DNA of 64,000 bases from a bacterium (GCA_963651445.1 CAVJPU010000002.1:18232-82231), one strand, 5' to 3'; numbered from the stretch's first letter, positions 4,300-45,238 are shown. Notes: a model not told the origin generated them from the sequence alone. Numbers and translations: made by a program.

Positions 4300-4626
4300 T
4301 TAAAATGAAAACATCTTTCGTTTAAACATCAAGTCGTTCAACTGCATTTGTAGAATCTTTTCTACGTGTACGGTCAACTCAACCTTTCTATCTTCACTAG
4401 GAGTGCTAAACCCGTATGATACACCGTTACCAGAGATTTGGATTTCGGTAATGTATACAATGTGATCAGTACCATCTTCCAATTTAATCAAAATTTCTTG
4501 CTTAACGTCCTTCATAGCATCTTTGATAATACCCAAAGATTTATCGTAAAGAGCTTGCCCTTGTTGTCCTTTTGACTCAGCTTCCAGCTCATCTACATCT
4601 AAGTCTAAATCTAGATCATTAGTCAT
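4300..4626 (-). CDS. hypothetical acidic protein in the position of T4 gene 40
   Basis: ATG at 4626 is preceded by GGAG and overlaps the stop of the upstream gene (ATGACTAA). Assignment is by position only. Confidence 0.45.
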   Translation of the reverse strand: MTNDLDLDLDVDELEAESKGQQGQALYDKSLGIIKDAMKDVKQEILIKLEDGTDHIVYITEIQISGNGVSYGFSTPSEDRKVELTVHVEKILQMQLNDLMFKRKMFSF

Positions 4627-5167
4627 TTTTAGCTCCAATGAATTCTTTGATTTTTAAATCAGCTATTACTTGGTCAAACGGTTTAGCTTCAACTACACCA
4701 TTATACACATCATGCTCAAGAATTTTGTATGGCGTAATCCAAAGAGCTTTATATAATTTTTCGAACTCATCAACAACCTTATTAAACTGATCTTCCGAAA
4801 TTGCAATCAAATCATCTGCAAAATCATCTTCAAGCTTATTACGTGTAAGGCCAACTACAAGAACTTTATTATTGTCAGCAAGACGCTTAAAGTCATCCAT
4901 GTATATTCCGGTTCGTTTTCCTCTAAGAACGCTTTCGTACACAATGTTACTTAAACACCCACGATCAAGAATGTATACGTAATTATCGTCTAGATAATTC
5001 AGCATTGTTTCGAAGATAGCTACTTCGTTACGTGTCAAACAAGTAAAACGCCCTTCACTGGTCTTTTTAGGAAATCTAATTAACTTCATTCCAAGGCTTT
5101 CTAAGCCTTGGATAAAAGTAGTTTTTCCTGCGTTATCTGGTCCTTCAACTAAAATAATTTTTGCCAT
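4619..5167 (-). CDS. thymidylate-kinase-like nucleotide kinase (P-loop)
   Basis: Contains ILVEGPDNAGKTT Walker A and an LDRGCLSNIVYE block like the Tmk DR..S..AY motif. 182 aa. Confidence 0.6.
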   Translation of the reverse strand: MAKIILVEGPDNAGKTTFIQGLESLGMKLIRFPKKTSEGRFTCLTRNEVAIFETMLNYLDDNYVYILDRGCLSNIVYESVLRGKRTGIYMDDFKRLADNNKVLVVGLTRNKLEDDFADDLIAISEDQFNKVVDEFEKLYKALWITPYKILEHDVYNGVVEAKPFDQVIADLKIKEFIGAKND

Positions 5168-6087
5168 GTATCTTCACCTGGATTAATAATAAGATCACAT
5201 ATGTTAGGTAAATTATATTCACAAATTATGTTAGCATTAAAATAAATCAATTCAGCTAGACCAGGATGGAAAACTTTTTCTGGGTTTTCGTGGTATACGA
5301 TCTTGGGTTGCCCTAACAATACTCGATAGAAATCTACTTTTGATAGCTTCATACGGTGGATTATTGCCAGGTCACTATACTTTTCGCGATCAAATGAATC
5401 GTTCGGATCAGTAATGAATACTGCTCCACCGTATTTTTTCATTGACTCATTAACTACAAGATCAAATTTGTAGCACTTGTCCGAAATTCTAAACGGGAAG
5501 AATATTGTATTATGGCCCAAATATAACGGATCTAAGTCTCGAACGTATGATTCCAAAATATATGGGTTGATAACTCGTTGACAAACAATGATTTTGCTTG
5601 GATTCGCGCCATTTGCAATTAATACTTCTTTTTGGCCTCTGTTAAGAACATAAGTGCGAATAGATTTATTGACACTTAGTACATCATGTCCTAAAAATTT
5701 ATCAATGTAATCTCGCGGGTTCTCTGGGTCGGAAGTAATATTAAAATTAAAAATGACTGGTAATTTGCCACTATACCCGGTAATATCCGTTACTAAAACA
5801 TCACAATTATTACTATGGAATAATGAATATACAATTTCTAGATTTAATTCTGACCAAAATTTCTCTCGTGTGGCTAATGCATTAATACCGTATTCCATTG
5901 TAACGAATTTTTTATTTGGAAATAGTTTGACCAATTCCGCTTCATCAACAATATTACGTGGGACTACAATAATATCTTCATCTGACGCGCGATGAAGATG
6001 CAATTGAAAATTGCCATCCTTTAAAACAGTATACCCATTGTCGTCATATGAACGCATAGAAAAAATGGGAACTATTAACTTTTTCAT
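5149..6087 (-). CDS. putative GT-B-type glycosyltransferase in the position of T4 beta-gt
   Basis: ATG at 6087 has an AAGGA Shine-Dalgarno (the track start at 6093 is TTG). The C-terminal E-x-x-F-H-P-G-L-A-E-L-I-Y-F-N-A-N-I-I-C resembles the GT-B E-x-F-G-x-x-x-x-E-A motif. Ends in TAG. Confidence 0.4.
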   Translation of the reverse strand: MKKLIVPIFSMRSYDDNGYTVLKDGNFQLHLHRASDEDIIVVPRNIVDEAELVKLFPNKKFVTMEYGINALATREKFWSELNLEIVYSLFHSNNCDVLVTDITGYSGKLPVIFNFNITSDPENPRDYIDKFLGHDVLSVNKSIRTYVLNRGQKEVLIANGANPSKIIVCQRVINPYILESYVRDLDPLYLGHNTIFFPFRISDKCYKFDLVVNESMKKYGGAVFITDPNDSFDREKYSDLAIIHRMKLSKVDFYRVLLGQPKIVYHENPEKVFHPGLAELIYFNANIICEYNLPNICDLIINPGEDTWQKLF

Positions 6088-26425: not shown

Positions 26426-26899
26426 TCACTTTAGCATTTTTCTTAATAATTTAGAATATAGCTTAACCATATCCTGTTTCTTCATTCCAGAAGTATATAC
26501 ACCGCCAACTTTAGTGTACTCGATAATCATATCATCTTTAGAAAGATTTGTAAACTGCTTAGTTTTATCTCTAATGAACACAGGATGGATTTTATTTTCA
26601 GATGTATCTTTAGAATAATATTCTGTTAAAGAAATTAGCCAGTCTTGGATTGCTATATCTCTAGATTTAAGGCCAGAAGAATTGAACTTGTGGAGTATTT
26701 GGCCTTCTAAAGCATTACAAAATGGGCATAATAAACCACGAATTCGTCCTGCTTTAGGGCCATTCAATTCGTGGTCATGATCTAAATGATTAGAGCCTAC
26801 TTCTGGATTTAGATCACGTTTGCATAGTAAACATTTTCCATTTTGGAGCTCGTATAACCTATATTTTTCTTCTTCGAATTGTTTACCGACTAATAGCAT
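26426..26899 (-). CDS. 49: recombination endonuclease VII (gp49)
   Basis: NGKCLLCKRDLNPEVGSNHLDHDHELNGPKAGRIRGLLCPFCNALEGQ is near-identical in pattern to T4 gp49. Confidence 0.9.
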   Translation of the reverse strand: MLLVGKQFEEEKYRLYELQNGKCLLCKRDLNPEVGSNHLDHDHELNGPKAGRIRGLLCPFCNALEGQILHKFNSSGLKSRDIAIQDWLISLTEYYSKDTSENKIHPVFIRDKTKQFTNLSKDDMIIEYTKVGGVYTSGMKKQDMVKLYSKLLRKMLK

Positions 26900-26929: not shown

Positions 26930-27214
26930 TTAATCCGTCGGAATGACTCGGTATGAGTCATTTGCATCCAAAAGACACCAAAACCCGGATAATTCCGGAA
27001 CGGTAGAAATATCGATTATTTCTCCGGTCTCAGCATCTTTTAATTTATCGATGCCCCACACTGTAGAATCGCCTTCTAAGAATGCCAAGCTTTCAATAAA
27101 ATATGGCGTTGCCGGTTTAAGAGATTCAAAATATTGAGAGAATAATATATTGTGATCGAAATATACAGCGTTAATAAGTATAGTATCGCCTACACTAGGC
27201 ATGATTCTAATCAT
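26930..27214 (-). CDS. small protein, member 1 of a three-gene tandem paralogue family
   Basis: ATG at 27214 is preceded by GAGG. It shares the VGD-I ... Y-I-E ... W-x-(F/L) pattern with the next two ORFs. Confidence 0.45.
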   Translation of the reverse strand: MIRIMPSVGDTILINAVYFDHNILFSQYFESLKPATPYFIESLAFLEGDSTVWGIDKLKDAETGEIIDISTVPELSGFWCLLDANDSYRVIPTD

Positions 27215-27482
27215 TGATGACCTCAAATTCCGATGGATCACTTTCAAGTACAAAACACCAATATGCGTCGGCGTTTTCGGCTTGTTCATAAATGTCAAAT
27301 ACTTCTTGTGTTTGTACACATCTGATAAAGGTTGCACCTGTATCACCTGATGATTCTGTTTTTACTGCTAGAATTTCATACGAATTTCCCGGAGAAAGCT
27401 CCGGGAAAAAATCTAGCAATTTAGTATTAACACCAGGTGAGAAAAATGCATCAGTAAATGTGATGATATTTCCTACCTTCAT
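27207..27482 (-). CDS. small protein, paralogue family member 2
   Basis: 91 aa with a GAGG Shine-Dalgarno; ends in TAG. Confidence 0.5.
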   Translation of the reverse strand: MKVGNIITFTDAFFSPGVNTKLLDFFPELSPGNSYEILAVKTESSGDTGATFIRCVQTQEVFDIYEQAENADAYWCFVLESDPSEFEVIND

Positions 27483-27491
27483 AATTACCTC

Positions 27492-27800
27492 TTATTGTTT
27501 ATTAAAAAAGTGTGGCGTATGTTCTGTGAAGAATGCCCAGAATGGATCATCTTCTTCCAATTCAACAACTTGGCCTGTTTTAGTACATTTGAGTTTTGTT
27601 GCACCAATTGTATGTTCTAATAGTTCTGTATGCTCATCTTCTGCGTATGCAGTTTTAACAGATTCAATCTCAAATGTTGTGTCGGTTAAAAGAATAGGAT
27701 ACCGTTTAGCTAACAGATTAATATTACGACGTCCAAGGCTAGTAAATGAAATAACATCGTTAACCGCAAGTTCTACTGGATTTAAATAAGTTGTTGACAT
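27492..27800 (-). CDS. small protein, paralogue family member 3
   Basis: 102 aa with an early-type promoter upstream. Confidence 0.5.
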   Translation of the reverse strand: MSTTYLNPVELAVNDVISFTSLGRRNINLLAKRYPILLTDTTFEIESVKTAYAEDEHTELLEHTIGATKLKCTKTGQVVELEEDDPFWAFFTEHTPHFFNKQ

Positions 27801-28780: not shown

Positions 28781-29131
28781 TTACTCACTGATTGCCGGGT
28801 TAGAAAACGTTAATACAATATACGGCGCGTCTAATGTTCTAGGATCCGGATATACTATTTCGATATCAAGCGGCGTTAAATATTTAAATTCCATCATTTT
28901 TGCATAAACGAGTGCCATTTCTGTTTCTTGGCCTCGTTTAAATGCAACTCGATACTTCCAACGAGTAGAAAACGGAGAAGCTTTAACGTATTCAAAAATT
29001 GCTGAATACGCATGTTCAAATATAGAAATAATACGGTCTCCGGAAACTTGTTGTTCTTGAGATGTTTTAATAAATTCCATCAAATCATTTGTTTTAGTAT
29101 CAATGTCCATTTTTAGGCTCCTCAAATTCAA
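28781..29131 (-). CDS. small protein, member of a ~100-aa paralogue family (divergent copy)
   Basis: IISIFEHAYSAIFEYVKASPFSTRWKYRV aligns with the two other family members. Confidence 0.5.
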   Translation of the reverse strand: MNLRSLKMDIDTKTNDLMEFIKTSQEQQVSGDRIISIFEHAYSAIFEYVKASPFSTRWKYRVAFKRGQETEMALVYAKMMEFKYLTPLDIEIVYPDPRTLDAPYIVLTFSNPAISE

Positions 29132-29414
29132 AGATTATTGCTGCTGGGCTATAAACGGTAGGAGCAAGTTCTCGTCCGGGTGTATAAGTAAATGATAGCA
29201 TTGTCAATGCCTTATGCGCAAAAATAGAATCATATAGCTTTTTTAAAGTCTGTGCATTGTTGGTTCGATAATTATAACTCCATGATTTAGCAAATGGATC
29301 TGCTTTAATCATTTCAGCAATTTTTGATTCAGCGTATGTAAATATTTGTTTTGCCTTTTCAATATGCTCATCTGCTGCGCGACAATCTAGGACAAGTTTA
29401 TTAAAATCCATCAT
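29100..29414 (-). CDS. small protein, ~100-aa paralogue family
   Basis: MMDFNKLV...KQIFTYAESKIAEMIKADPFAKSWSYNYR...LTMLSFTYT...AIIFEF. Confidence 0.55.
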   Translation of the reverse strand: MMDFNKLVLDCRAADEHIEKAKQIFTYAESKIAEMIKADPFAKSWSYNYRTNNAQTLKKLYDSIFAHKALTMLSFTYTPGRELAPTVYSPAAIIFEFEEPKNGH

Positions 29415-29980
29415 TTCGATTTTCCTTTTGACATTGCATAACTTATTCTCGGCAAGGCCAGTCCAGTCCCATAAAATACAGTAGTATTGCCTATTTCTCT
29501 AGAACCATATGAGCCGATTTCTATACCATTGCATTCGATATCGGTTTGTGATGTATATTTTACAATTGATATATCTAATCCTTGAGATCTAAAGAAATAT
29601 TTAGCGTCATCGACAATTGACTCTTCCGCCTCAAATGATATTAGCTCAAGTTTTAAGAAAATCTCGAGATGTGAGTCATCCGGATGTTCATCTCGTTGGC
29701 ACGGCGTAAGCATCATGAACTTACCAGTTGGGGCCATAGATGCTCCAACCGATGAATAATTCTTGATCAACTGATAGAAACTCTGTTCTGCGCTGCCTAC
29801 GTAATATGTACCGTCAATGTGCGGTTTTGCTTCTCGGCCTTCAGGCAAAGTTAAATCAATAACATCTTTGTCAACGCATTGGCTGGCAGTAATTGGTCGA
29901 TATCCTAACTTTGTATAGTAATCAATTGCCTTAATAAGCATTGGAAGATTTATTTCAAATCTTGGATCCACTAGCATCAT
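29411..29980 (-). CDS. minimal class II aminoacyl-tRNA-synthetase-like catalytic core (189 aa)
   Basis: Motif-1-like YYTKLGYRPITAS. Motif-2-like LTPCQRDEHPDDSHLEIFLKLEL, compared with FRNE...H.PEFT.LE. Motif-3-like YGTGLALPRI, compared with G.G.G.xR. Confidence 0.45.
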   Translation of the reverse strand: MMLVDPRFEINLPMLIKAIDYYTKLGYRPITASQCVDKDVIDLTLPEGREAKPHIDGTYYVGSAEQSFYQLIKNYSSVGASMAPTGKFMMLTPCQRDEHPDDSHLEIFLKLELISFEAEESIVDDAKYFFRSQGLDISIVKYTSQTDIECNGIEIGSYGSREIGNTTVFYGTGLALPRISYAMSKGKSK

Positions 29981-30030
29981 TTCATATTTACCTATTGTTT
30001 AATACTTTACTATTATACCACACATTTGGC

Positions 30031-30339
30031 TTATTGTATACTCTCAAATACATCTTTTGCTCTAATTTCAAAAATAATGCAAGCTGTTCTTTCCCAGGCA
30101 CCTGTATAACTAAATGCCATTTGGGTCAAATGCGTATAATTTAACATGTTTTCGTACAAACCACGTAGTTCATCTGAATTGCCAGAACCTTTATATGTGT
30201 AGTCCCATGAATCTTGGAATGGGCGATCTTCGATTTTATTTGCGATTTCTCGTTCAGCTTCTTCAAAAATCTCTTTAATTTTTGATTCTGATGCCTTTTT
30301 GGTTTGACTATCTTTAATTAATTTCGCAAAGTCTAACAT
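30031..30339 (-). CDS. small protein, ~100-aa paralogue family
   Basis: MLDFAKLI...KEIFEEAEREIANKIEDRPFQDSWDYTYK...LTQMAFSYT...CIIFEI. Confidence 0.55.
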   Translation of the reverse strand: MLDFAKLIKDSQTKKASESKIKEIFEEAEREIANKIEDRPFQDSWDYTYKGSGNSDELRGLYENMLNYTHLTQMAFSYTGAWERTACIIFEIRAKDVFESIQ

Positions 30340-30340
30340 T

Positions 30341-30976
30341 TTAATCTACCTTTAATGTTTCTTTAAGATTTGACACAAGTGTGTTGAATTCATTTTGATG
30401 AATTTTTGACAAAGTACCTAGTCCGGCAATCATTGTAGAAGATATTCTAATAATTGTTCCTTTAGGACATGAAACGATTTGATTTCTGTGATGTCTTAGT
30501 TGACCAGGTTCAATAATATTACCACCGGAAGTAATAGATCCAATTAATGGTTCAATAATATACGTACGATTAGCCGGCAATGCACCTGTGTTAACAGCCG
30601 GTGCATAAGAATCTGCAGTGTACACAATATAAAAATCACCGAGTACGCTAAATGATGTCCAAGCACGATGTGTAGTATAATCCGATGCGGTTGTTACAAT
30701 CCAACGCAGCCAATCTTCTGCACTACCAAAGGATTGACGGGTATTATCACTAAATGCATTTGTAGTAGTATTGGACATAATGGCAATATCCTCGATAGTC
30801 GCATCAAGCTGATTTGCCATTAACTTAACCATTCCATACAAATCGGATAATTCCACTAGTGCCATAATCTTATTACCGGATGCTAATGCATCCACGAATT
30901 CAATTGTCTCTTCAACTAGCTTATATGGGCTAAGAATTCCAGATTTTTTGATTTGTGTAACGTGATAACCACTCAT
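30341..30976 (-). CDS. protein with an N-terminal MazG/HisE-like all-alpha NTP pyrophosphohydrolase domain
   Basis: KLVEETIEFVDALASGNKIMALVELSDLYGMVKLMANQLDATIEDIA fits the EE..E...A......E.xD pattern. The C-terminal half is unknown. Confidence 0.4.
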   Translation of the reverse strand: MSGYHVTQIKKSGILSPYKLVEETIEFVDALASGNKIMALVELSDLYGMVKLMANQLDATIEDIAIMSNTTTNAFSDNTRQSFGSAEDWLRWIVTTASDYTTHRAWTSFSVLGDFYIVYTADSYAPAVNTGALPANRTYIIEPLIGSITSGGNIIEPGQLRHHRNQIVSCPKGTIIRISSTMIAGLGTLSKIHQNEFNTLVSNLKETLKVD

Positions 30977-31002: not shown

Positions 31003-31032
31003 ATTATACACAAAAGGCAGTTTATAGTAAAC
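31003..31032 (-). promoter_or_regulatory. T4 early-type promoter whose -35 lies inside a 13-bp hairpin (PeSL-like)
   Basis: The minus strand reads GTTTAC TATAAACTGCCTTTTGTG TATAAT. The hairpin is AAAAGGCAGTTTA-TAG-TAAACTGCCTTTT at 31012..31040. Confidence 0.5.
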
Positions 31033-31047
31033 TGCCTTTTTAAATTA

Positions 31048-32368: not shown

Positions 32369-32634
32369 TATAACACCGTATAATTCTTCTTAATTATCGT
32401 TGTGCCTTTGACAATTTTCTCTGGGCGATTTGTCCATTTATAGACATCAGGGATATTCCCGAATGTACCGTTTACAATATCTCGAACTATGATTGGTTTA
32501 ACCGCCAAGTTTTCGACTTCCACTTCATGTTTAGATTTTCCATTTTCTACAAAACTCCAATCTTCAGTGAAACTTTTTAGATCCGACGAATACGTTTCTT
32601 TTCGAATAACTGCTAATTTCATGAGGTTCTCCAT
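32368..32634 (-). CDS. hypothetical protein
   Basis: 88-aa ORF. Confidence 0.45.
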   Translation of the reverse strand: MENLMKLAVIRKETYSSDLKSFTEDWSFVENGKSKHEVEVENLAVKPIIVRDIVNGTFGNIPDVYKWTNRPEKIVKGTTIIKKNYTVL

Positions 32635-32675
32635 TTAAATAAAGGTCCTAATCAAATCGATTAGGACCTTGAGAA

Positions 32676-33671
32676 TTAACGAAGTTGAGTAACTTCAGCG
32701 ATTTCTTTCCAATTTGCTTCATCAGTTTTTACAAAACTAGCTAGATATAACGCTGTACGTAATGATACATTACGTAGACGTGTAACATTATCTTTCATCC
32801 AATCTAATACTGCGGCAGTTTGGTAAATCGATAACCCAGCTTTAGCCATCATATCAGTATTTTTTATAACATCTTCAACACGAACCATAATTTCTTCATT
32901 TGTGTGAACACCTAAATCAAGATACACAGAACGAGATAATAGTGCATCAAGATGCGGAGCTAATTTAGATCCACGTTCAATTTCTCGGTCCATATCGGTA
33001 TTTGTAATAAAAACGATAGTTCCTTCGAATTCGAATTCTTGTGGAATTTCTTTTTCTTCAAGATATGATGAAGCTGTTGACCAACATACTTTTCGAACTT
33101 CTGATGTATCTAAAGCAGCTTTTAACAAATTAAGTGCATCTTCAGAAGAAAATACGTCAACATCATCTAAAACCAATACACTTCCTTTAGAACTGCATTC
33201 ATATAATTTGCAGTACATTCCGATAGGTGACATTTTACCGTTAATCAATGAATACTCGATTTGTCCGTCATCATGTGCTTCTTGAAGGTCTCTATTAAGT
33301 GTATAAGTTTTACCAATACCAGGAGCTCCAGAAATTATCAATGAACGAATATTACCATTAATTAGTCCTGAAGTCATAAAATCCATCACACCAAATCTTT
33401 TAGAAATTCTAGCTTGGATTTCTTCAATTGTTTCGGTTGGTTTAGATTCTACAGGAAGTTGGAAGCTAGGAGTATAACCTTCAATTGTGTAATCACCGTG
33501 GAAAACCCAAATTCCTTTAGGTTTTCCATTTAACTCAACGATTACTTTACCGTTACCAAGATGAGATTCAGAAGGAGAAACTTCTGTAGGGAACCAAGTA
33601 TTCAAAAGATTAAAAGTTCCAGAGATTTCGTTGTTTCTGAATTTACCTTTAGTGATTGTAACTGTAGCCAT
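32676..33671 (-). CDS. AAA-family ATPase (position of T4 nrdC.10)
   Basis: Walker A SGAPGIGKTY and Walker B VLVLDDVD. 331 aa. Confidence 0.65.
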   Translation of the reverse strand: MATVTITKGKFRNNEISGTFNLLNTWFPTEVSPSESHLGNGKVIVELNGKPKGIWVFHGDYTIEGYTPSFQLPVESKPTETIEEIQARISKRFGVMDFMTSGLINGNIRSLIISGAPGIGKTYTLNRDLQEAHDDGQIEYSLINGKMSPIGMYCKLYECSSKGSVLVLDDVDVFSSEDALNLLKAALDTSEVRKVCWSTASSYLEEKEIPQEFEFEGTIVFITNTDMDREIERGSKLAPHLDALLSRSVYLDLGVHTNEEIMVRVEDVIKNTDMMAKAGLSIYQTAAVLDWMKDNVTRLRNVSLRTALYLASFVKTDEANWKEIAEVTQLR

Positions 33672-33754: not shown

Positions 33755-34033
33755 TTACGAAAAATAATTTAGCACCAATACAATTAATACTAATAATGCG
33801 AATATATTTACTAATGTTTCTGCTTTAACGACTAAGGATGTTGTTGGAATACCTAGTTTTAAATTAAACGTGTTTGAGCCCTTTATGGTATGCATAGGAA
33901 ATTCTTGTCCATCACATTTGACCCACAACGTCAACAAATTACCTTTTTCTCTAACCGAAACTATTTTAGCGAATCGCATTTTTGCTAAAATAAAAACATA
34001 TCCTTTAGGTTTAAACTCGGCCATGCTTACCAT
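33755..34033 (-). CDS. small protein with a C-terminal transmembrane tail
   Basis: 92-aa ORF overlapping the end of the upstream gene. Start uncertain (34033 or 34024). Confidence 0.35.
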   Translation of the reverse strand: MVSMAEFKPKGYVFILAKMRFAKIVSVREKGNLLTLWVKCDGQEFPMHTIKGSNTFNLKLGIPTTSLVVKAETLVNIFALLVLIVLVLNYFS

Positions 34034-35057
34034 TTATAAGATCCTTATATTCGTGAATTACAAAAGCGTTCCAAAAGTCTCTATCTACTTCTTTGCGCAT
34101 ACCGTTTTTGCCAGCAGTTTCAGCAGCTTTATCAACGTCGGAAATAAGATCTTCAATTAATTCCGAAACAGCTTTATATTGGAGTTTACCTTGCTTAATA
34201 TCCAACAAGACATTTCTATGAGCCAACGGATATTTCAAATCACCAGTAGAGTAGATTTCTAATAATTGCATACTGCCACGCACAACATGGTGCAAAGCTT
34301 TCCAGTCAATTCCTTCATTCCGTTCGGCTAATCTAGCTCGTTCACCTGATTTCTCCCATGCCGCTTTGATTTTATGCTTAAATTCCGTTAACGAAATGGA
34401 CAATTGGTATTTAGAACCATTTACCGAATAAAATTTAAATCCGGTCTTTTTGCACTCGGTGAAGAAACAATGATCTGTCACCGGAAGCTTACTCGTTACA
34501 TCCGAAAGTTTAACGGATTTAGTCAATGAAACATGTTTTGGTGCAGTAAATAAGTCCTCAGTTTTCATTAATTCTTCTAATGACATCGTATAACTTTCTT
34601 GTAGGTCTTTGACGGCATTCCATACTAGTTTCAATGATGCAACTTTGCTACCTTTAATTCCATAGCGAGCAGCCTGGGTTTTGACATACTGCAAATATGC
34701 TTTCATATCGGTTGTATACAAACGACTACGATTTTTATAAATGAAATCCCATGGGTCAATATAGTCGTAATCAACAATTAGTTCACTAGGCGTATGGATC
34801 ATATCAATGGTAAAGGTCTCGCCTTTCATTGCCATTTCCATAAAATATTTTAGTGAATACATCGTAATGTCGACGTCATTTGATGTATTCTTTACGTGTT
34901 GACTCGCAGTATTTTCAGAATAATGATCCTTTGCTGTCCCCAAAAGAATAGACTTAGAATCCGGCAAATAAATGCCTTTATAGTCCATATCACTTTCTGG
35001 TGTATCCGTTCCATACAATGTAGAACCAAATACGCTTTTCATAACAAGTACGCTCAT
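34011..35057 (-). CDS. predicted nucleotidyltransferase, RlaP / pol-beta-like family (position of T4 nrdC.11)
   Basis: The N-terminus VFGSTLYGTDTPESDMDYKGIYLP matches the GS.xYG....SDxD..G signature. Confidence 0.55.
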   Translation of the reverse strand: MSVLVMKSVFGSTLYGTDTPESDMDYKGIYLPDSKSILLGTAKDHYSENTASQHVKNTSNDVDITMYSLKYFMEMAMKGETFTIDMIHTPSELIVDYDYIDPWDFIYKNRSRLYTTDMKAYLQYVKTQAARYGIKGSKVASLKLVWNAVKDLQESYTMSLEELMKTEDLFTAPKHVSLTKSVKLSDVTSKLPVTDHCFFTECKKTGFKFYSVNGSKYQLSISLTEFKHKIKAAWEKSGERARLAERNEGIDWKALHHVVRGSMQLLEIYSTGDLKYPLAHRNVLLDIKQGKLQYKAVSELIEDLISDVDKAAETAGKNGMRKEVDRDFWNAFVIHEYKDLINGKHGRV

Positions 35058-39977: not shown

Positions 39978-40019
39978 TGTTTTTACGCAAAAATGGGACA
40001 TTAAATAATGTCCCATATA

Positions 40020-40109
40020 TGGCGGAAAGAGGTGTAGTCGAAACACAACCGTTAATACCGGTCCTCTTGCTTAGCAGGCAGAGCCGAACGCCTGTTCAGT
40101 TCACTTTCC
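40020..40109 (-). tRNA. tRNA-Ser (anticodon GCU), type II with long variable arm
   Basis: Hand-folded. Acceptor GGAAAGT/TCTTTCC (one mismatch), anticodon loop CTGCTAA, variable arm ACCG-GTATTAA-CGGT, encoded CCA. The T stem is only 4 bp. The 5' end overlaps the stop of ORF 40101..40568. Confidence 0.55.
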
Positions 40110-40568
40110 GTGTTTGGTTAAAGTAACTAGTCCTTTGTTTAATGCCATTAGGCCATTTTCTGATTCGTAAACCACTGTAGATCTATTTAACTCTCGTGAC
40201 TTTTCATTGTACAAAATAACCGCTGGGATTGTTTCTGTAGGTTTTAACACCTTTTCGGCAATCAATGCTTCAGCGCATTCTGCTAAAGATTCCAACGAAG
40301 GATCGGCAAGTTTTTGTTTATCTTCGGCTTTAACTGATTTGTAGATATCAGAATATGATTCCCAAAGATATGATGATTTGCTATAAGATTTAGATTCGCT
40401 AATAAATCGATAGCCTAAAACTCGCATAGGTGTAACTTCTTTAGTTTCAACATTTTCTACAAGAACTTTGTCGCCATTAGTAAAACCTAAATAGCTCAAG
40501 TCTTTTTCAGACAATGTGTCAACAATATTAGCCGGATAGCCATAAACAGATTCAAAAATTGTAGTCAT
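40101..40568 (-). CDS. hypothetical protein
   Basis: 155-aa ORF. Confidence 0.55.
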   Translation of the reverse strand: MTTIFESVYGYPANIVDTLSEKDLSYLGFTNGDKVLVENVETKEVTPMRVLGYRFISESKSYSKSSYLWESYSDIYKSVKAEDKQKLADPSLESLAECAEALIAEKVLKPTETIPAVILYNEKSRELNRSTVVYESENGLMALNKGLVTLTKHGK

Positions 40569-40680
40569 AATAATTTACCTTTAAAGATTAATATTATTTA
40601 TTCTTTAGCAATTTATATTAATTATATGAGTTATGATGTTATGCGCTTTATGGATAAAGTTCTTTTAGCTAAAGAAATAA

Positions 40681-40754
40681 TGGCAGGCCCTGAGTGAATC
40701 GAACACTCGTTGACGGGGTTGGAGCCCGTAGTAATACCTCTATACGAAAGACCT
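40681..40754 (-). tRNA. tRNA-Trp (anticodon CCA)
   Basis: Hand-folded. Anticodon arm ACGGG-CTCCAAC-CCCGT, T arm GAGTG-TTCGATT-CACTC, encoded CCA. Confidence 0.8.
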
Positions 40755-40760
40755 ATAATT

Positions 40761-40834
40761 TGGTAGCGAAATCCAGACTCGAACTGGAACCTTTGGGTTA
40801 TGAGCCCTATGTGCAGCCTTTACACCATATCGCG
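40761..40834 (-). tRNA. tRNA-Met or tRNA-Ile2 (anticodon CAU), with a 1:72 mismatch
   Basis: Hand-folded. Loop CTCATAA, T arm TCCAG-TTCGAGT-CTGGA, encoded CCA. The acceptor stem has C1-U72 and U6-U67 mismatches. Confidence 0.6.
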
Positions 40835-40841
40835 ATAAAAT

Positions 40842-40916
40842 TGGAAGTCACAAAAGGAATCGAACCTTTACCATCAGAGTCAAATTCTGATGTGCTAACC
40901 GTTACACCATGCGACA
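40842..40916 (-). tRNA. tRNA-Gln (anticodon UUG)
   Basis: Hand-folded. Anticodon arm TCAGA-ATTTGAC-TCTGA, T arm AAAGG-TTCGATT-CCTTT, encoded CCA, U1-U72 mismatch. Confidence 0.75.
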
Positions 40917-41020
40917 ATTGTTAGTTTTTGATCTGTTGAACTATAACAACAGCTTGGCGGTAAGTTCACCAAGTCTTAAGAAGTGTATTTCTACACTTAG
41001 ACCTTTTTATTGTTTTAAAA

Positions 41021-41097
41021 TGGTCTCCCATCCTGGATTTGAACCAGGGACATCTTCTTTCCAAAAGAAGTAGGCTACCAGACTGCCCTAATGAGAG
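41021..41097 (-). tRNA. tRNA-Pro (anticodon UGG)
   Basis: Hand-folded. Anticodon arm CTTCT-TTTGGAA-AGAAG, T arm CCTGG-TTCAAAT-CCAGG, encoded CCA. Confidence 0.85.
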
Positions 41098-41105
41098 ATA
41101 AAAGA

Positions 41106-41181
41106 TGGTACAACTAGATGGATTTGAACCATCGACACATGGATTATCGGTCCATTGCTCTACCAGCTGAGCTATAGTTGT
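41106..41181 (-). tRNA. tRNA-Ile (anticodon GAU)
   Basis: Hand-folded. Anticodon arm ATGGA-CCGATAA-TCCAT (C rather than U at position 33), T arm GATGG-TTCAAAT-CCATC, encoded CCA. Confidence 0.75.
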
Positions 41182-41182
41182 A

Positions 41183-41255
41183 TGGAGGGTTGACTCGATA
41201 TATTTAACACGAGACATAGGACTCATATAATGTCTAGAACATTAATGCTCAACCC
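41183..41255 (-). ncRNA. tRNA-sized RNA with a perfect 7-bp acceptor stem and encoded CCA but non-canonical inner arms
   Basis: Minus strand: GGGTTGA ... TCAACCC T CCA, 73 nt, filling the gap between tRNA-Ser(UGA) and tRNA-Ile. Inner hairpin AGACAT-N12-ATGTCT. No TTCRANY T-loop. Confidence 0.4.
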
Positions 41256-41260
41256 GTAGA

Positions 41261-41351
41261 TGGCGGAAAGTGAGAGGATCGAACTCTCAAGGCTTTTACA
41301 CTCGACTGATTTCAAGTCAGTTGCCGTCGCCTGCCGTCGGCTTGACTTTCC
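41261..41351 (-). tRNA. tRNA-Ser (anticodon UGA), type II
   Basis: Hand-folded. Acceptor GGAAAGT/ACTTTCC, anticodon arm ACTGA-CTTGAAA-TCAGT, T arm GAGAG-TTCGATC-CTCTC, encoded CCA. Confidence 0.8.
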
Positions 41352-41389
41352 AAAATATTTCGTTCACCTTTTAGGTAGTGAGACACCTT

Positions 41390-41866
41390 TTAAACAATTA
41401 TATAAACAACATCTTCATTTGTAAAAGCTTCAAACTGTTTAATTTTATTTTTAATGAGTTTAAGAATTTCTGGTTTTTCTAAACAGAAAGGCCCGCCAAC
41501 GTCAATAAAAACACGTTTTGTATCTTTTAATATACCACGGAGATGATTCACATTATCTGCTTTAAGTAATGAATATCTAAAATCAAGACTTTTGTTAAAC
41601 ACAAACAATCTGTCTTTGAAACTATCAACAGTGTGATAATTATACCCAACATAAATGTCTGTTTTGTGATCAAACATTGCTGCAAGACTAGTTGTTTTAC
41701 CTTGTTGTCTAGGAGTTAAGCACCATATTTGTCTAAACTCGTAAAGCGATTGTTCTCTACTAAAATGTTTAGGTATGGGTTTAATCTGGGATTCAACAAA
41801 GGTCTCTAGTCTATTTTTATATGTTTGAATATCACCGTTTAAATCTTTAATTTTATATTTATTCAT
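41390..41866 (-). CDS. small P-loop protein embedded in the tRNA island
   Basis: 158 aa. TPRQQGKTTSLAAMF resembles a terminase-type (SRQLGKTT) Walker A. Confidence 0.45.
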   Translation of the reverse strand: MNKYKIKDLNGDIQTYKNRLETFVESQIKPIPKHFSREQSLYEFRQIWCLTPRQQGKTTSLAAMFDHKTDIYVGYNYHTVDSFKDRLFVFNKSLDFRYSLLKADNVNHLRGILKDTKRVFIDVGGPFCLEKPEILKLIKNKIKQFEAFTNEDVVYIIV

Positions 41867-41968
41867 AACTATACCTATAAGCGATTATGTTTTAGAATAG
41901 ATGTTAGGATAGCTCCAAAACGTATTAAAGTTTCGTAAGGCACCCGAATTGAATCAATTGCTAACATT

Positions 41969-42044
41969 TGGCTCCTCAGACATGGCTCGAACATGTGACA
42001 AACGGATTAACAGTCCGCTACTCTACCAACTGAGTTACTGAGGA
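41969..42044 (-). tRNA. tRNA-Asn (anticodon GUU)
   Basis: Hand-folded. Acceptor TCCTCAG/CTGAGGA, loop CTGTTAA, T arm ACATG-TTCGAGC-CATGT, encoded CCA. Confidence 0.85.
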
Positions 42045-42186
42045 ATAAAATCGGATGAACATACCAGCAAATGGCTTAGCACTATGACGGGTCGCCTAAT
42101 ATGTTCTTAAACCTGTTGTCAACGCAGGAAAGCTTAGTGGCATACACGATATAAATTGACAAATGTATGCAAGATGTTCTTTTTAT

Positions 42187-42262
42187 TGGTTGGACCACAC
42201 AGACTTGAACTGAGACTAACGACATCACAAATCGCGGTGCTAACCATTACACTATGGTCCAC
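42187..42262 (-). tRNA. tRNA-His (anticodon GUG), with an encoded extra 5' G (G-1)
   Basis: Hand-folded. Acceptor TGGACCA/TGGTCCA, loop TTGTGAT, encoded CCA, one T-stem mismatch. Confidence 0.75.
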
Positions 42263-42269
42263 ATTAAAT

Positions 42270-42345
42270 TGGTACTCTTAGAGAGGATCGAACTCTCGTT
42301 TTCAACGTGAAAGGCTGACGTCCTGTCCATCTAGACGATAAGAGC
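42270..42345 (-). tRNA. tRNA-Glu (anticodon UUC)
   Basis: Hand-folded. Anticodon arm TCAGC-CTTTCAC-GTTGA, 4-nt variable region, T arm GAGAG-TTCGATC-CTCTC, encoded CCA. Confidence 0.8.
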
Positions 42346-42405
42346 ATTGTTACTTTAAATATTTGTCGATATAATCAACATTTGCTGGATTACGTCTAAT
42401 CCATT

Positions 42406-42582
42406 TCATCTGTACTTTCCTGGTTGTTCACATAATTCGTTGCGAACGATATCTTTTTTGATACGACGCTCAACACGGTGTGTCATATTTTTAATGATTG
42501 GACCAACTCCAAGCTTAGAACAAGGACGTTTAGACCAAAACTCTTGACCAGTTTGTTTAGAACCTTTAATTGTACGACTCAT
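42406..42582 (-). CDS. 58-aa basic protein embedded in the tRNA island
   Basis: ATG at 42582 (MSRTIKGSKQTGQEFW...) with a GAGGA Shine-Dalgarno. The track's longer start runs toward the tRNA-Tyr gene. Confidence 0.45.
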   Translation of the reverse strand: MSRTIKGSKQTGQEFWSKRPCSKLGVGPIIKNMTHRVERRIKKDIVRNELCEQPGKYR

Positions 42583-42681
42583 AATAATATCCTCAAAATT
42601 TGGTGTACAAAGGGAGCGCTTGCATCTCCAAATCAACGACTTTTCCGCTGCTTTACTATTTAAGCTATCAATGCACATATG

Positions 42682-42767
42682 TGGTGGAGTTGCTAGGATT
42701 CGAACCTAGATAGCCGAAGCGTCGGATTTACAGTCCGATGGGTTTGACCAACAACCCAACCAACTCC
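42682..42767 (-). tRNA. tRNA-Tyr (anticodon GUA), type II
   Basis: Hand-folded. Acceptor GGAGTTG/CAACTCC, anticodon arm TCGGA-CTGTAAA-TCCGA, long variable arm, encoded CCA. Confidence 0.85.
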
Positions 42768-43810: not shown

Positions 43811-43887
43811 TGGTGGGCCTCCAGGAATTCGAATCCCGTATCTTCCCGTTATGAGCGGGGTGCTTATACCACTTAAGCTTGAGGCCC
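43811..43887 (-). tRNA. tRNA-Met (anticodon CAU), second copy
   Basis: Hand-folded. Acceptor GGGCCTC/GAGGCCC, loop CTCATAA, T arm CGGGA-TTCGAAT-TCCTG, encoded CCA. Confidence 0.75.
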
Positions 43888-44821: not shown

Positions 44822-44896
44822 TGGTGTGCATAATCGGATTCGAACCGATACAAAAAGATTTTAGAGGTCTCTGCTCTACCGTTGAGCTATATGCAC
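44822..44896 (-). tRNA. tRNA with anticodon CUA (amber-reading, suppressor-type); amino-acid identity undetermined
   Basis: Hand-folded, 75 nt. Acceptor GTGCATA/TATGCAC, D arm GCTC-AACGGTA-GAGC, anticodon stem GAGAC/ATCTT (a C-A mismatch at 31:39), loop CTCTAAA, T arm ATCGG-TTCGAAT-CCGAT, encoded CCA. Confidence 0.55.
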
Positions 44897-45109: not shown

Positions 45110-45238
45110 GTAACTTTTTAATAAGAACGAAGAGACTGGATTCGAACCAATATCAACCGGGTTTACAGGCCAGTTATGCTCCAGTATCAGGCGCAAGCTT
45201 AACCATTTAGCTACACTCCGAACTTATTAAAAAGTTAC
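45110..45238 (-). ncRNA. tRNA-like core (97 nt) clamped by a perfect 16-bp inverted repeat
   Basis: GTAACTTTTTAATAAG (45110-45125) is the exact reverse complement of CTTATTAAAAAGTTAC (45223-45238). The core has D-arm-like AGCT-AAATGGTTA-AGCT, T arm ATTGG-TTCGAAT-CCAGT and a CTGTAAA loop, but no standard cloverleaf and no CCA. Confidence 0.45.

Follow-up and report, generated by a model that had tools for sequence, protein, structure and literature searches.

A minimal class II aminoacyl-tRNA-synthetase-like core and a MazG-like domain form a conserved two-enzyme unit in viral genomes

What is the task of a synthetase-like gene of only 189 codons in a phage genome, where it is packed between three genes for small related proteins and a gene for a MazG-like protein? 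This question is raised by positions 28781-30976 of a 64,000-nt stretch of DNA (GCA_963651445.1, CAVJPU010000002.1:18232-82231; hereafter the window, with coordinates counted within it), the source of which is a T4-like phage. The region comprises five closely packed open reading frames (ORFs), all on the minus strand, at the positions given in the original prediction for this locus. Our analysis leads to an answer in which only two of the encoded activities form a lasting association: the aminoacyl-tRNA-synthetase (aaRS)-like core and the MazG-like domain constitute a conserved two-enzyme viral unit, not a five-gene cluster. In order of transcription, from the 211-residue protein gene (30976-30341) to the last small gene (ending at 28781), the products are as follows.

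30731-30976, minus strand: MazG/HisE-like (Atd1-family) N-terminal domain, about 82 residues, of the 211-residue protein (PHROG 6408, HisE signature)
30341-30730, minus strand: C-terminal domain, about 130 residues, of the 211-residue protein (shared with Apostate orf116)
30031-30339, minus strand: small paralogue 1 (sp1), 102 residues, between the MazG-like and aaRS-like genes (BLASTP paralogy)
29411-29980, minus strand: minimal class II aaRS catalytic core, 189 residues, with an active site of the seryl-tRNA synthetase (SerRS) type (PHROG 4806, AlphaFold2, Foldseek, hhalign)
29100-29414, minus strand: small paralogue 2 (sp2), 104 residues (BLASTP paralogy; its start overlaps the aaRS-like stop codon in ATGA)
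28781-29110, minus strand: small paralogue 3 (sp3), 109 residues from the ATG at 29110 (BLASTP paralogy; the public gene call is 109 residues)

The 189-residue protein is a stand-alone minimal class II aaRS catalytic core. It matches PHROG 4806 ('histidyl tRNA synthetase') over its full length (E=4e-44), and a metagenome-scale protein collection holds 237 homologues of about 170-200 residues, some of them with precomputed PF00152 or PF01409 assignments; single-sequence searches of Pfam and the PDB returned nothing, and profiles were required. In an alignment of 43 homologues, 36-56% identical to the window protein, the blocks VGSAEQS, PC.R, F.K.EL, D...E..S and GTG.A.PR are invariant, and the family profile retrieved only class II aaRS catalytic domains from the PDB, with the pyrrolysyl (PylRS, E=5e-5), seryl (2e-3) and phenylalanyl (PheRS, 4e-3) enzymes ranked above the aspartyl one (AspRS, 0.24-0.56). 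Pfam contacts among the 43 members comprised PF00152 in 24 (best 9e-8), PF01409 in 18 and PF00587 in a single one, and the window protein itself gave no match to PF00152. The AlphaFold2 model (predicted local distance difference test, pLDDT, 92; pTM 0.87) yielded 465 Foldseek matches in the PDB at E<=1e-3, of which the top 50 are all SerRS or PylRS, with SerRS 6x94 as the best (E=4.8e-11, TMq 0.72) and PylRS catalytic domains at TMq 0.71-0.73 and TMt about 0.55. Fold and profile searches thus agree on a class II core, as opposed to some unrelated fold, and nothing resembling an anticodon-binding domain was found in the protein, just as had been proposed from the sequence; the three class II motif blocks noted at the time are also genuine, as hhalign places them on motifs 1, 2 and 3 of Escherichia coli SerRS (EcSerRS) and they contain family-invariant residues. 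The suggested resemblance to class IIb enzymes, EpmA and AsnA, in contrast, had to be abandoned. The best matches are SerRS and PylRS instead, the core is nearest to bacterial SerRS, and neither EpmA nor AsnA occurs among the 37 PDB profile matches (E<=10) or the top 50 fold matches; the protein is also about 140 residues shorter than these two enzymes.

The family profile aligns to residues 158-415 of EcSerRS, which is the whole catalytic domain (hhalign, E=7e-6). In the SerRS-SerSA structure, the seryl moiety touches T237 and E239 (the 'serine-binding TxE motif'), R268, E291 and S391, with F287 stacking against the adenine, Mg2+ bound by a Glu (E349 in S. aureus) and R397 at the end of the motif-3 stretch (10.1101/586255). 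The corresponding window residues are S63 (for T237 of EcSerRS), E65 (E239), R96 (R268), F108 (F287), E112 (E291), E154 (E355), T172 (S391) and R178 (R397), and all eight are invariant in the 43 homologues. Around them, S63-A64-E65 forms the counterpart of the TxE motif T237-A238-E239, the motif-2 pair R96/E98 aligns to R268/E270, the Mg2+ site E154/S157 to E355/S358, and the motif-3 stretch G171-T172-G173...R178 to G390-S391-G392...R397, all four being invariant throughout. Because the contacts of SerRS to seryl-adenylate, adenine and Mg2+ all have invariant counterparts, the core probably binds ATP-Mg2+ together with serine, or else with a comparable amino acid that is small and polar, and would, judging from these residues, form an aminoacyl-adenylate. 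What is missing is the tRNA-binding part: residues 1 to about 157 of EcSerRS, the coiled-coil arm, have no counterpart in the 189-residue protein, and the core is itself about 70 residues shorter than that of SerRS (186 versus 258 aligned positions). The motif-2 loop is reduced to 11 residues with a median charge of -5 (range -6 to -1), compared to +1 for the 18-residue loop of EcSerRS, and acidity extends to the protein as a whole (median pI 4.9, median net charge -9). That the loop is both short and strongly acidic disfavours tRNA charging.

Public records name the gene of about 190 codons 'histidyl tRNA synthetase' (PHROG, RefSeq), 'putative seryl-tRNA synthetase', 'putative tRNA synthetase' or 'hypothetical protein', and genome papers repeat the first of these at face value as a translation function. 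Taken literally, the labels imply an active enzyme that charges tRNA with histidine or serine as a supplement to the translation machinery of the host, a reading with which the SerRS-like active site would agree. We regard it as very improbable, as the 189 residues include neither the coiled-coil arm of SerRS nor the anticodon-binding domain of histidyl-tRNA synthetase (HisRS), the motif-2 loop is acidic, and a near-obligate MazG-like partner has no role in canonical aminoacylation. The histidyl identity in particular found no support: HisRS and HisZ chains are absent from the 37 PDB profile matches and the top 50 fold matches, PF00587 was contacted by one family member in 43, and a total length of 189 residues includes no C-terminal domain.

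Which of the adjacent genes, then, belongs with the core? We examined 98 loci, of which 80 are a diverse selection from IMG/VR and 18 come from about 185,000 species genomes, almost all of them metagenome-assembled genomes (MAGs). In 76 of the 80 IMG/VR loci (three fusions), a MazG-like domain is found at most 713 nt from the core gene and on its strand, and in 16 of the 18 genome or MAG loci (six fusions) it is adjacent or fused; two apparent absences, missed by ORF calling, were recovered by tblastn (E=4e-48 and 1e-32), bringing the total to 94 of 98. Counted by cluster, the partner is present in 76 of 80 at 70% identity and in 56 of 56 at 50% identity. The MazG-like gene is located immediately upstream of the aaRS-like gene in the E. 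coli phage JLBYU50 (Justusliebigvirus) and the Caulobacter phage CcrColossus, and two genes upstream in the Pectobacterium phage PcCB7V; in further fusions, in the Microcystis phage MaMV-DC (ORF129L) and in the protein P0133, the domain is joined to the C-terminus of the aaRS-like core. No other conserved neighbour gene was found around the 98 loci, and ORFs in the gaps between the partners are heterogeneous, without a common family. As nearly all of the genomes have the two side by side, coupled in translation or fused, the two proteins probably act in one complex or pathway, and we are highly confident both of the identity of the two enzymes and of their being a functional pair. The expectation that the genes of this region would co-occur elsewhere is therefore borne out for the core and the MazG-like domain but not for the small paralogues, and the MazG-like gene, correctly recognized before as a neighbour, turns out to be the actual conserved partner.

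The first 82 or so residues of the 211-residue protein match PHROG 6408 (E=1.5e-19) and are 38-46% identical to stand-alone proteins of 83-87 residues that are encoded close to the aaRS-like genes of JLBYU50, PcCB7V and CcrColossus. They carry the HisE signature K19..E22-E23..E26-15-E42.S44-D45, with a spacing identical to that in E. coli HisIE residues 149-175; 33 of the 34 family members share this signature (K..EE..E-15-E.SD), which none of 20000 shuffles reproduced. Matches to the Pfam family PRA-PH were obtained for 21 of the 34 members, the best at a sub-threshold 1e-3, and the window domain scores E=0.06 for MazG, 0.12 for PRA-PH and 0.063 for TIGR03188, all under the curated cut-offs; HisE chains in the PDB match the family weakly (E=0.18-0.5). 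Public annotations likewise name the domain MazG-like or HisE-like, and the earlier assignment of a MazG/HisE-type domain to the start of gene 30341-30976 is thus upheld by the signature together with the sub-threshold profile matches. The family also has invariant residues of its own: Y4, H5, K19, T71, F75 and R80. The C-terminal domain of about 130 residues occurs only in T4-like (Straboviridae-type) versions of the protein, such as Apostate orf116, which is 40% identical to the 211-residue protein over 190 residues, and, beyond these, in a few metagenomic proteins; it has no match in Pfam.

In several lineages the MazG-like domain is fused, at its N- or C-terminus, to a different domain of about 180 residues with an invariant H-x-H...H pattern and the motif GLGF.Q.K (loci L036, L065, L076, L085, L094, L102, L114 and L017, and the protein P0132), and in locus L058 this His-motif domain is encoded by a separate gene (4421-4984) between the two partners. 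The T4-like C-terminal domain was considered as a degenerate copy of it and rejected (hhalign probability under 1%). Conceivably, the His-motif domain is a cupin-like enzyme that binds metal and adds an optional third component to the pathway; its pattern is reminiscent of thiol-dioxygenase-like cupins, for which no sequence match in Pfam or the PDB was found.

A class II core found together with a HisE-like domain recalls HisZ and HisE, which act in one pathway and of which HisZ is a HisRS paralogue regulating HisG. The core could accordingly be a non-catalytic, HisZ-like subunit that modulates the MazG/HisE-like enzyme. HisZ is devoid of adenylation activity (review PMC9437257). In the phage family, the invariance of all ATP-, Mg2+- and amino-acid-contacting residues in proteins of 36-56% identity to the window protein points to catalysis, making a purely regulatory role highly unlikely.

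The three small proteins are indeed paralogous, as had been noticed (BLASTP E=2e-19, 4e-10 and 2e-6). Their relatives are few: a word-seeded search of 5.8 billion clusters found the three themselves only, an exhaustive HMMER search of 1.84 billion representatives added five distant relatives, all of 102-107 residues, tblastn over 50,697 phage records detected a homologue in the phage Acj61 only, and there were no matches in Pfam, PHROG, NCBIfam or PADLOC. The family is limited to Acinetobacter-type T4-like phages and occurs with and without the aaRS-like enzyme. The proposal that these proteins serve as acceptors or specificity factors of the core, in the manner of amino acid:carrier-protein ligases, could draw on their tight packing and overlapping stop and start codons in the window, and on Acj61 and contig L009, where one copy directly follows and overlaps the aaRS-like gene. 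The broader distribution is at odds with it. The aaRS-like gene is present in 276 phage records, and Acj61 is the only known phage among them with the small protein; Acj61 is also the only one of the 98 loci with a homologue, and no small protein detectable with hidden Markov models (HMMs) lies near the enzyme pair in Lazarusvirus or any other lineage. Conversely, the small protein is found in the same nrdC.10-to-gp49 region without an aaRS-like or MazG-like gene in L008 and L012-L014, and beside gp31-like and gp41-like genes, again without the aaRS-like gene, in L011. The residues invariant in the family are M, P, W and T only, with no invariant Ser, Lys or Cys. One of five AlphaFold2 models of sp1 was confident (pLDDT 81, the others about 42) and combines a long helix with a small sheet (alpha+beta); a search of the PDB with it reached E=0.26 at best and revealed neither a match nor a fold like that of a carrier protein or of ubiquitin. 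In BFVD, this model retrieved Acj61 p122, A0A3T0IH27 of the Acinetobacter phage AbTZA1 and A0A410T599 of Henu6 only. The latter two are uncharacterised 106-residue proteins (E about 1e-5, 19-25% identity), and despite these structural matches HMMs detect no homologue of the small proteins in Lazarusvirus loci at distances of up to 5 kb from the module. Mostly absent beside the enzyme, and with neither a conserved acceptor residue of these kinds nor a carrier fold, the small paralogues are most improbable as acceptors or specificity factors, and this model is largely refuted as a general mechanism. They are lineage-specific accessory genes that share a hypervariable region with the module by chance, although in the window they may have a local role with the core. 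The striking local arrangement of three paralogues around an enzyme is, in other words, not the functional unit.

A first indication of the chemistry comes from the partner. Atd1 of PcCB7V, a protein with a MazG-like catalytic domain that was picked for its proximity to a viral nucleotidyltransferase, is reported in a preprint to hydrolyse ppGpp (Km about 50 uM), not ribonucleoside triphosphates (rNTPs), to reduce the level of (p)ppGpp in cells and to shield them from the toxicity of TIR-STING and retron-TIR (Ho et al., 10.1101/2022.06.09.495361). The word 'synthetase' is absent from that preprint (10.1101/2022.06.09.495361). The window MazG-like domain is 41% identical (E=4.6e-15) to an 86-residue PcCB7V ORF, which lies two genes downstream of the nucleotidyltransferase and two genes upstream of the aaRS-like gene and is the sole MazG-like gene in that nucleotidyltransferase neighbourhood (locus L004). 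If the pair acts as a unit, the published account of Atd1 would cover half of a system.

Taken together, these observations lead us to propose, tentatively, a two-enzyme module that removes or rewires host alarmones or immune nucleotides, in counter-defence or host takeover. In such a scheme, the core would activate serine, or a similar small amino acid, with ATP-Mg2+, yielding aminoacyl-adenylate and pyrophosphate (PPi), and would then apply this aminoacyl-AMP chemistry to a nucleotide, as canonical class II enzymes do in making Ap4A-type compounds; such synthetases transfer AMP from the aminoacyl-adenylate to nucleotide polyphosphates. The chemistry has a parallel in a SerRS assay that runs on Ap4A and PPi (10.1101/586255). 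The MazG-like partner, predicted to be an all-alpha pyrophosphohydrolase of about 83 residues that cleaves a nucleoside-polyphosphate bond, would next cleave a substrate or a product, with the net outcome that a host alarmone or immune nucleotide, e.g. (p)ppGpp, is removed or rewired during infection. A small phosphate- or ribose-bearing nucleotide is suggested as the acceptor because there is no conserved macromolecular partner and no tRNA-binding appendage and because the motif-2 loop is short and acidic; the nucleotide-hydrolase partner and the fusions to an enzyme-like His-motif domain point the same way, and the alarmone or immune-nucleotide role extends from Atd1. In its most specific form, in which the core adenylylates or aminoacylates a host alarmone or defence messenger via seryl-AMP, the MazG-like enzyme cleaves the product and no tRNA is charged, the proposal becomes unlikely. 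A close variant has the pair repair tRNA CCA ends that were pyrophosphorylated by toxSAS defences.

Several observations weigh against this proposal, or against individual parts of it. In Acj61 (NC_014661, locus L095) the aaRS-like gene is kept and the MazG-like gene has been lost by in-frame deletion: gene p124 (5560-5655) encodes a 31-residue remnant of the 212-residue MazG-like protein that keeps the N-terminal MSGYHITAIKKSG...KLVEE and the C-terminal KTRFGV. This phage, with its aaRS-like gene and one small-protein gene retained, represents a natural 'MazG-minus' variant. Because three further loci also have the core without a MazG-like partner, the core may work alone too. Likewise, the Atd1 phenotypes were obtained with the lone gene, without the aaRS-like protein (10.1101/2022.06.09.495361); as Atd1 acted alone, the MazG-like part is not strictly dependent on its neighbour. 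We infer from position that Atd1 is the 86-residue PcCB7V ORF, since the preprint gives no accession, and the proposed membership of the domain in the HisE/MazG superfamily draws on sub-threshold profile matches and a signature motif. As for the core, its motif-1 region, the part of a class II core that belongs to the dimer interface, aligns to EcSerRS, and the proline found there in at least 90% of the family is replaced in the window protein (Ser33), as it is by Ala in Lazarusvirus proteins; its serine specificity and its nucleotide acceptor are what we infer from the active site and the context. Finally, the core of CcrColossus (gp133; L006 3755-4609, also L055 and L079) bears an N-terminal domain of about 82 residues that resembles the helix-hairpin-helix (HhH) domain at the C-terminus of the RNA polymerase alpha subunit (alpha-CTD; PF03118, 30.8 bits, over the cut-off). 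It hints at an association with DNA, RNA or RNA polymerase in that lineage and, together with a YqeY neighbour in Justusliebigvirus, at a nucleic-acid acceptor.

A nucleic-acid acceptor is central to the main rival explanation, a tRNA-directed function, in which the CCA end of a host, phage-encoded or damaged tRNA is bound by the core, to be aminoacylated or protected, and the MazG-like partner removes pyrophosphate. The reversal of the 3'-pyrophosphorylation that RelA/SpoT-homologue toxins like CapRel carry out on tRNA would be one example, the charging of tRNA combined with degradation of ppGpp against the stringent response another. After all, A76 of tRNA is the default acceptor of every class II aaRS core, and the PylRS catalytic domain, a top fold match, charges its tRNA without reading the anticodon. 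toxSAS enzymes put a 3'-pyrophosphate on tRNA, and the activity of Atd1 on ppGpp, not rNTPs, is compatible with a ribose 3'-pyrophosphate as substrate. Some neighbours fit as well: a GatB/YqeY-domain gene directly 3' of the aaRS-like gene in JLBYU50 (L005 4586-5020; PF09424, 29.8 bits), the RlaP 'RNA repair' nucleotidyltransferase within 5 kb in 9 of the 98 loci (the window included), and a tRNA with the anticodon CUA in the window and in Lazarusvirus phages. None of them proved general. YqeY, considered as a general tRNA-binding partner, is confined to Justusliebigvirus and occurs in 0 of the 80 IMG/VR loci; RlaP/nrdC.11 was rejected as a third component for its nine loci; and the suppressor tRNA(CUA) was rejected as substrate, as the annotated cluster of 15 tRNA genes in JLBYU50 contains none, Acj61 gave no match, and the window tRNA has a short variable arm, not like that of tRNA-Ser. 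The core itself has no tRNA-binding arm or anticodon-binding domain, its strongly acidic motif-2 loop is 7 residues shorter than that of SerRS in a protein that is acidic as a whole, and indiscriminate serylation of tRNAs would be expected to cause mistranslation. A tRNA-directed function thus seems doubtful to us.

Another alternative casts the core as a ligase of amino acids that, like AsnA, EpmA or MshC, serves a pathway of biosynthesis or modification. The group that attacks the adenylate would be an amine or hydroxyl, borne by a metabolite, a host protein or a (deoxy)nucleotide, and the MazG-like enzyme would here supply (deoxy)nucleoside monophosphate (NMP/dNMP), as the MazG-like MazZ supplies this substrate to PurZ in Z-genome phages. 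Stand-alone aaRS cores are well known as ligases (review PMC9437257), the H-x-H...H domain, fused to the MazG-like domain or encoded between the partners, is reminiscent of a multi-enzyme small-molecule pathway, and the PF00152 family, which is class IIb and includes relatives of AsnA and EpmA, weakly matches more than half of the aligned homologues. Yet the neighbourhood has no conserved gene for a kinase, a transferase or another enzyme of such a pathway, the carriers belong to very different phage families, and the module resides in hypervariable accessory regions and is lost piecemeal, unlike genome-wide DNA modification. With profile and fold matches in the PDB that favour SerRS and PylRS over AsnA and EpmA, a ligase of this kind appears rather improbable, and we continue to favour, with due caution, the removal or rewiring of alarmones or immune nucleotides.

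In the window, the five genes are closely joined, with a 1-nt spacer between the 211-residue gene and sp1 and an ATGA overlap between the 189-residue gene and sp2. The sp3 ORF (28781-29131) would encode 116 residues if read from an upstream TTG at 29131; the ATG at 29110 is the more likely start, because it agrees with the 109-residue public gene call, and it leaves an 11-nt overlap between sp2 and sp3. Two further elements accompany the genes.

31003-31036, minus strand: strong hairpin at 31016-31036 (RNA fold -15.7 kcal/mol, z=-5.2), then a U-run and a TATAAT box
30012-30040, minus strand: promoter-like extended -10 element, TGgTATAAT (a consensus match, not functional evidence)

The hairpin lies immediately upstream of the 211-residue gene, where a promoter-like TTTACT-17-TATAAT is also found, and on sequence grounds the two likely mark a terminator/promoter boundary of the transcription unit. 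The extended -10-like site falls into the 50-nt gap ahead of the 189-residue gene. Since promoter-like matches in the region are not more frequent than in shuffled sequence, these sites are suggestive only.

The surroundings are typical of T4-like phages, with endonuclease VII (gp49, 26426-26899) and a PinA-type inhibitor (27207-27482) on one side and an nrdC.10-type AAA protein (32676-33671) and the nrdC.11/RlaP nucleotidyltransferase (34011-35057) on the other. The gene order agrees with that of Acinetobacter phages of the Twarogvirinae, e.g. Apostate and Acj61. Among known phage records there is no near-identical DNA, and distant blastn synteny was found with Acinetobacter T4-like phages only. 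The space between gp49 and the five genes is filled by small ORFs at 26930-27346, 27207-27482 and 27492-27800 (all on the minus strand), the second of which encodes the PinA-type peptidase inhibitor (PF10465, 29.6 bits); at the matching position, two or three PinA-type paralogues are present in Acinetobacter phages with the same synteny.

Farther along the window, a well-formed 75-nt tRNA (44822-44896, minus strand; Rfam 64.8 bits) has the amber-reading anticodon CUA and an encoded CCA end. Related genes, annotated 'tRNA-Pyl' or 'tRNA-TERM', occur in roughly 40 Acinetobacter Lazarusvirus records and in the Pectobacterium jumbo phage CBB, and the 61 long ORFs of the window end in TAG twice, in TAA 39 times and in TGA 20 times. 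Rfam additionally detects a tRNA at 43814-43887 (minus strand, 50.7 bits) that was missed by ARAGORN, and ARAGORN a 94-nt 'tRNA-Tyr(ATA)' at 45127-45220 (minus strand), which scores only 33.8 bits in Rfam, has no CCA end and may be intron-containing or degenerate. In JLBYU50 (locus L116), we also noted a PRPP-synthetase-like and nicotinate-phosphoribosyltransferase-like gene pair (39994-42692), possibly for NAD reconstitution, and a second, 240-residue 'phosphoribosyl-ATP pyrophosphohydrolase-like' gene (32432-33154).

The aaRS-like family is virus-restricted, as the about 185,000 species genomes yielded only the 18 loci mentioned above, mostly in MAGs. Within viruses, the module has spread through many phage families, including jumbo phages, and probably to a giant virus: the fusion protein P0133 (L002 6001-6801), on a 272-kb contig (GCA_048222815.1), is encoded near RING finger, RGS, dsRBD, PMM and TnpB-like domains, and the contig has the look of a giant virus of eukaryotes or of the host of one, in which case the module would not be confined to phages. 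As a class II core whose active site is complete, the core ranks with the smallest. Time and again, aaRS cores that stand alone have proved to be enzymes with new chemistry, as in the lysylation of EF-P, the acylation of carrier proteins and the synthesis of asparagine, and the pair described here offers a compact two-protein target in the search for new counter-defence or nucleotide-signalling chemistry. Should alarmone modification be its function, it would represent an undescribed two-step viral route for erasing nucleotide signals, in phages and possibly in giant viruses. Already at this stage, the analysis corrects the misleading name 'histidyl tRNA synthetase', which phage-therapy genome papers cite as a sign of translational autonomy. 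In the full-text literature, we found no functional study of the aaRS-like family and no description of its pairing with an Atd1-type domain; a search for ApppGpp gave reference-list mentions only, and a viral enzyme of this sort is missing from a review of aaRS paralogues (PMC9437257). The remark in the original prediction that no T4-like phage system of this composition was known to have been characterised therefore stands as far as function is concerned, but the gene family as such was known to databases.

How does the pair compare with known systems? With bacterial SerRS (6R1O; 6X94), the phage core shares the class II fold, an alignment over the whole catalytic domain and all named active-site residues. 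It differs in having no coiled-coil arm, in being about 70 residues shorter, in its acidic 11-residue motif-2 loop, its occurrence in viruses only, its MazG-like partner and, in the window, the replaced motif-1 proline. The PylRS catalytic domain (PylSc) is the best profile match (5e-5) and an equal-best fold match; it is similarly compact, without an anticodon-binding domain, and has an equally short motif-2 loop with the pattern HLE.F as well as a D.E.NG.E..S block. PylRS has a large hydrophobic pocket for pyrrolysine and is without the TxE motif of SerRS, whereas the phage core retains the polar residues of the serine type and is the smaller of the two by about 80 residues.

On the side of the partner, the window domain has the signature spacing of the HisE/MazG nucleoside triphosphate pyrophosphohydrolases (E. 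coli HisIE 149-175), with weak and consistent PRA-PH and TIGR03188 matches, but the phage family has invariant residues of its own and is linked to an aaRS-like enzyme, not to histidine biosynthesis. With 41% identity to the presumed Atd1 ORF and the same EE..E...E.SD signature, the window domain most closely resembles Atd1 of PcCB7V, although it is fused to a C-terminal domain of about 130 residues and paired with an aaRS-like core, while Atd1 has been studied alone.

EpmA/PoxA and AsnA, like the phage core, are stand-alone class II cores, and they use an adenylate to modify a non-tRNA acceptor (PMC9437257); the likeness extends to the weak PF00152 matches in 24 of 43 homologues, but the diagnostic residues of the phage core match SerRS. 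The amino acid:carrier-protein ligases (Mocibob et al. 2010) come to mind because a small gene adjoins the core in the window. The zinc-dependent, methanogen-type SerRS is the ancestor of these ligases, which transfer the acyl group to the phosphopantetheine arm of a carrier protein (PMC9437257), whereas the residues of the phage core match the pocket of the bacterial-type SerRS, and the small proteins of the window, with neither an invariant Ser nor a carrier fold, are absent from almost all genomes that carry the enzyme. The phage core is thus of a known kind, a stand-alone enzyme derived from an aaRS; what is new are its near-obligate MazG-like partner and its viral distribution.

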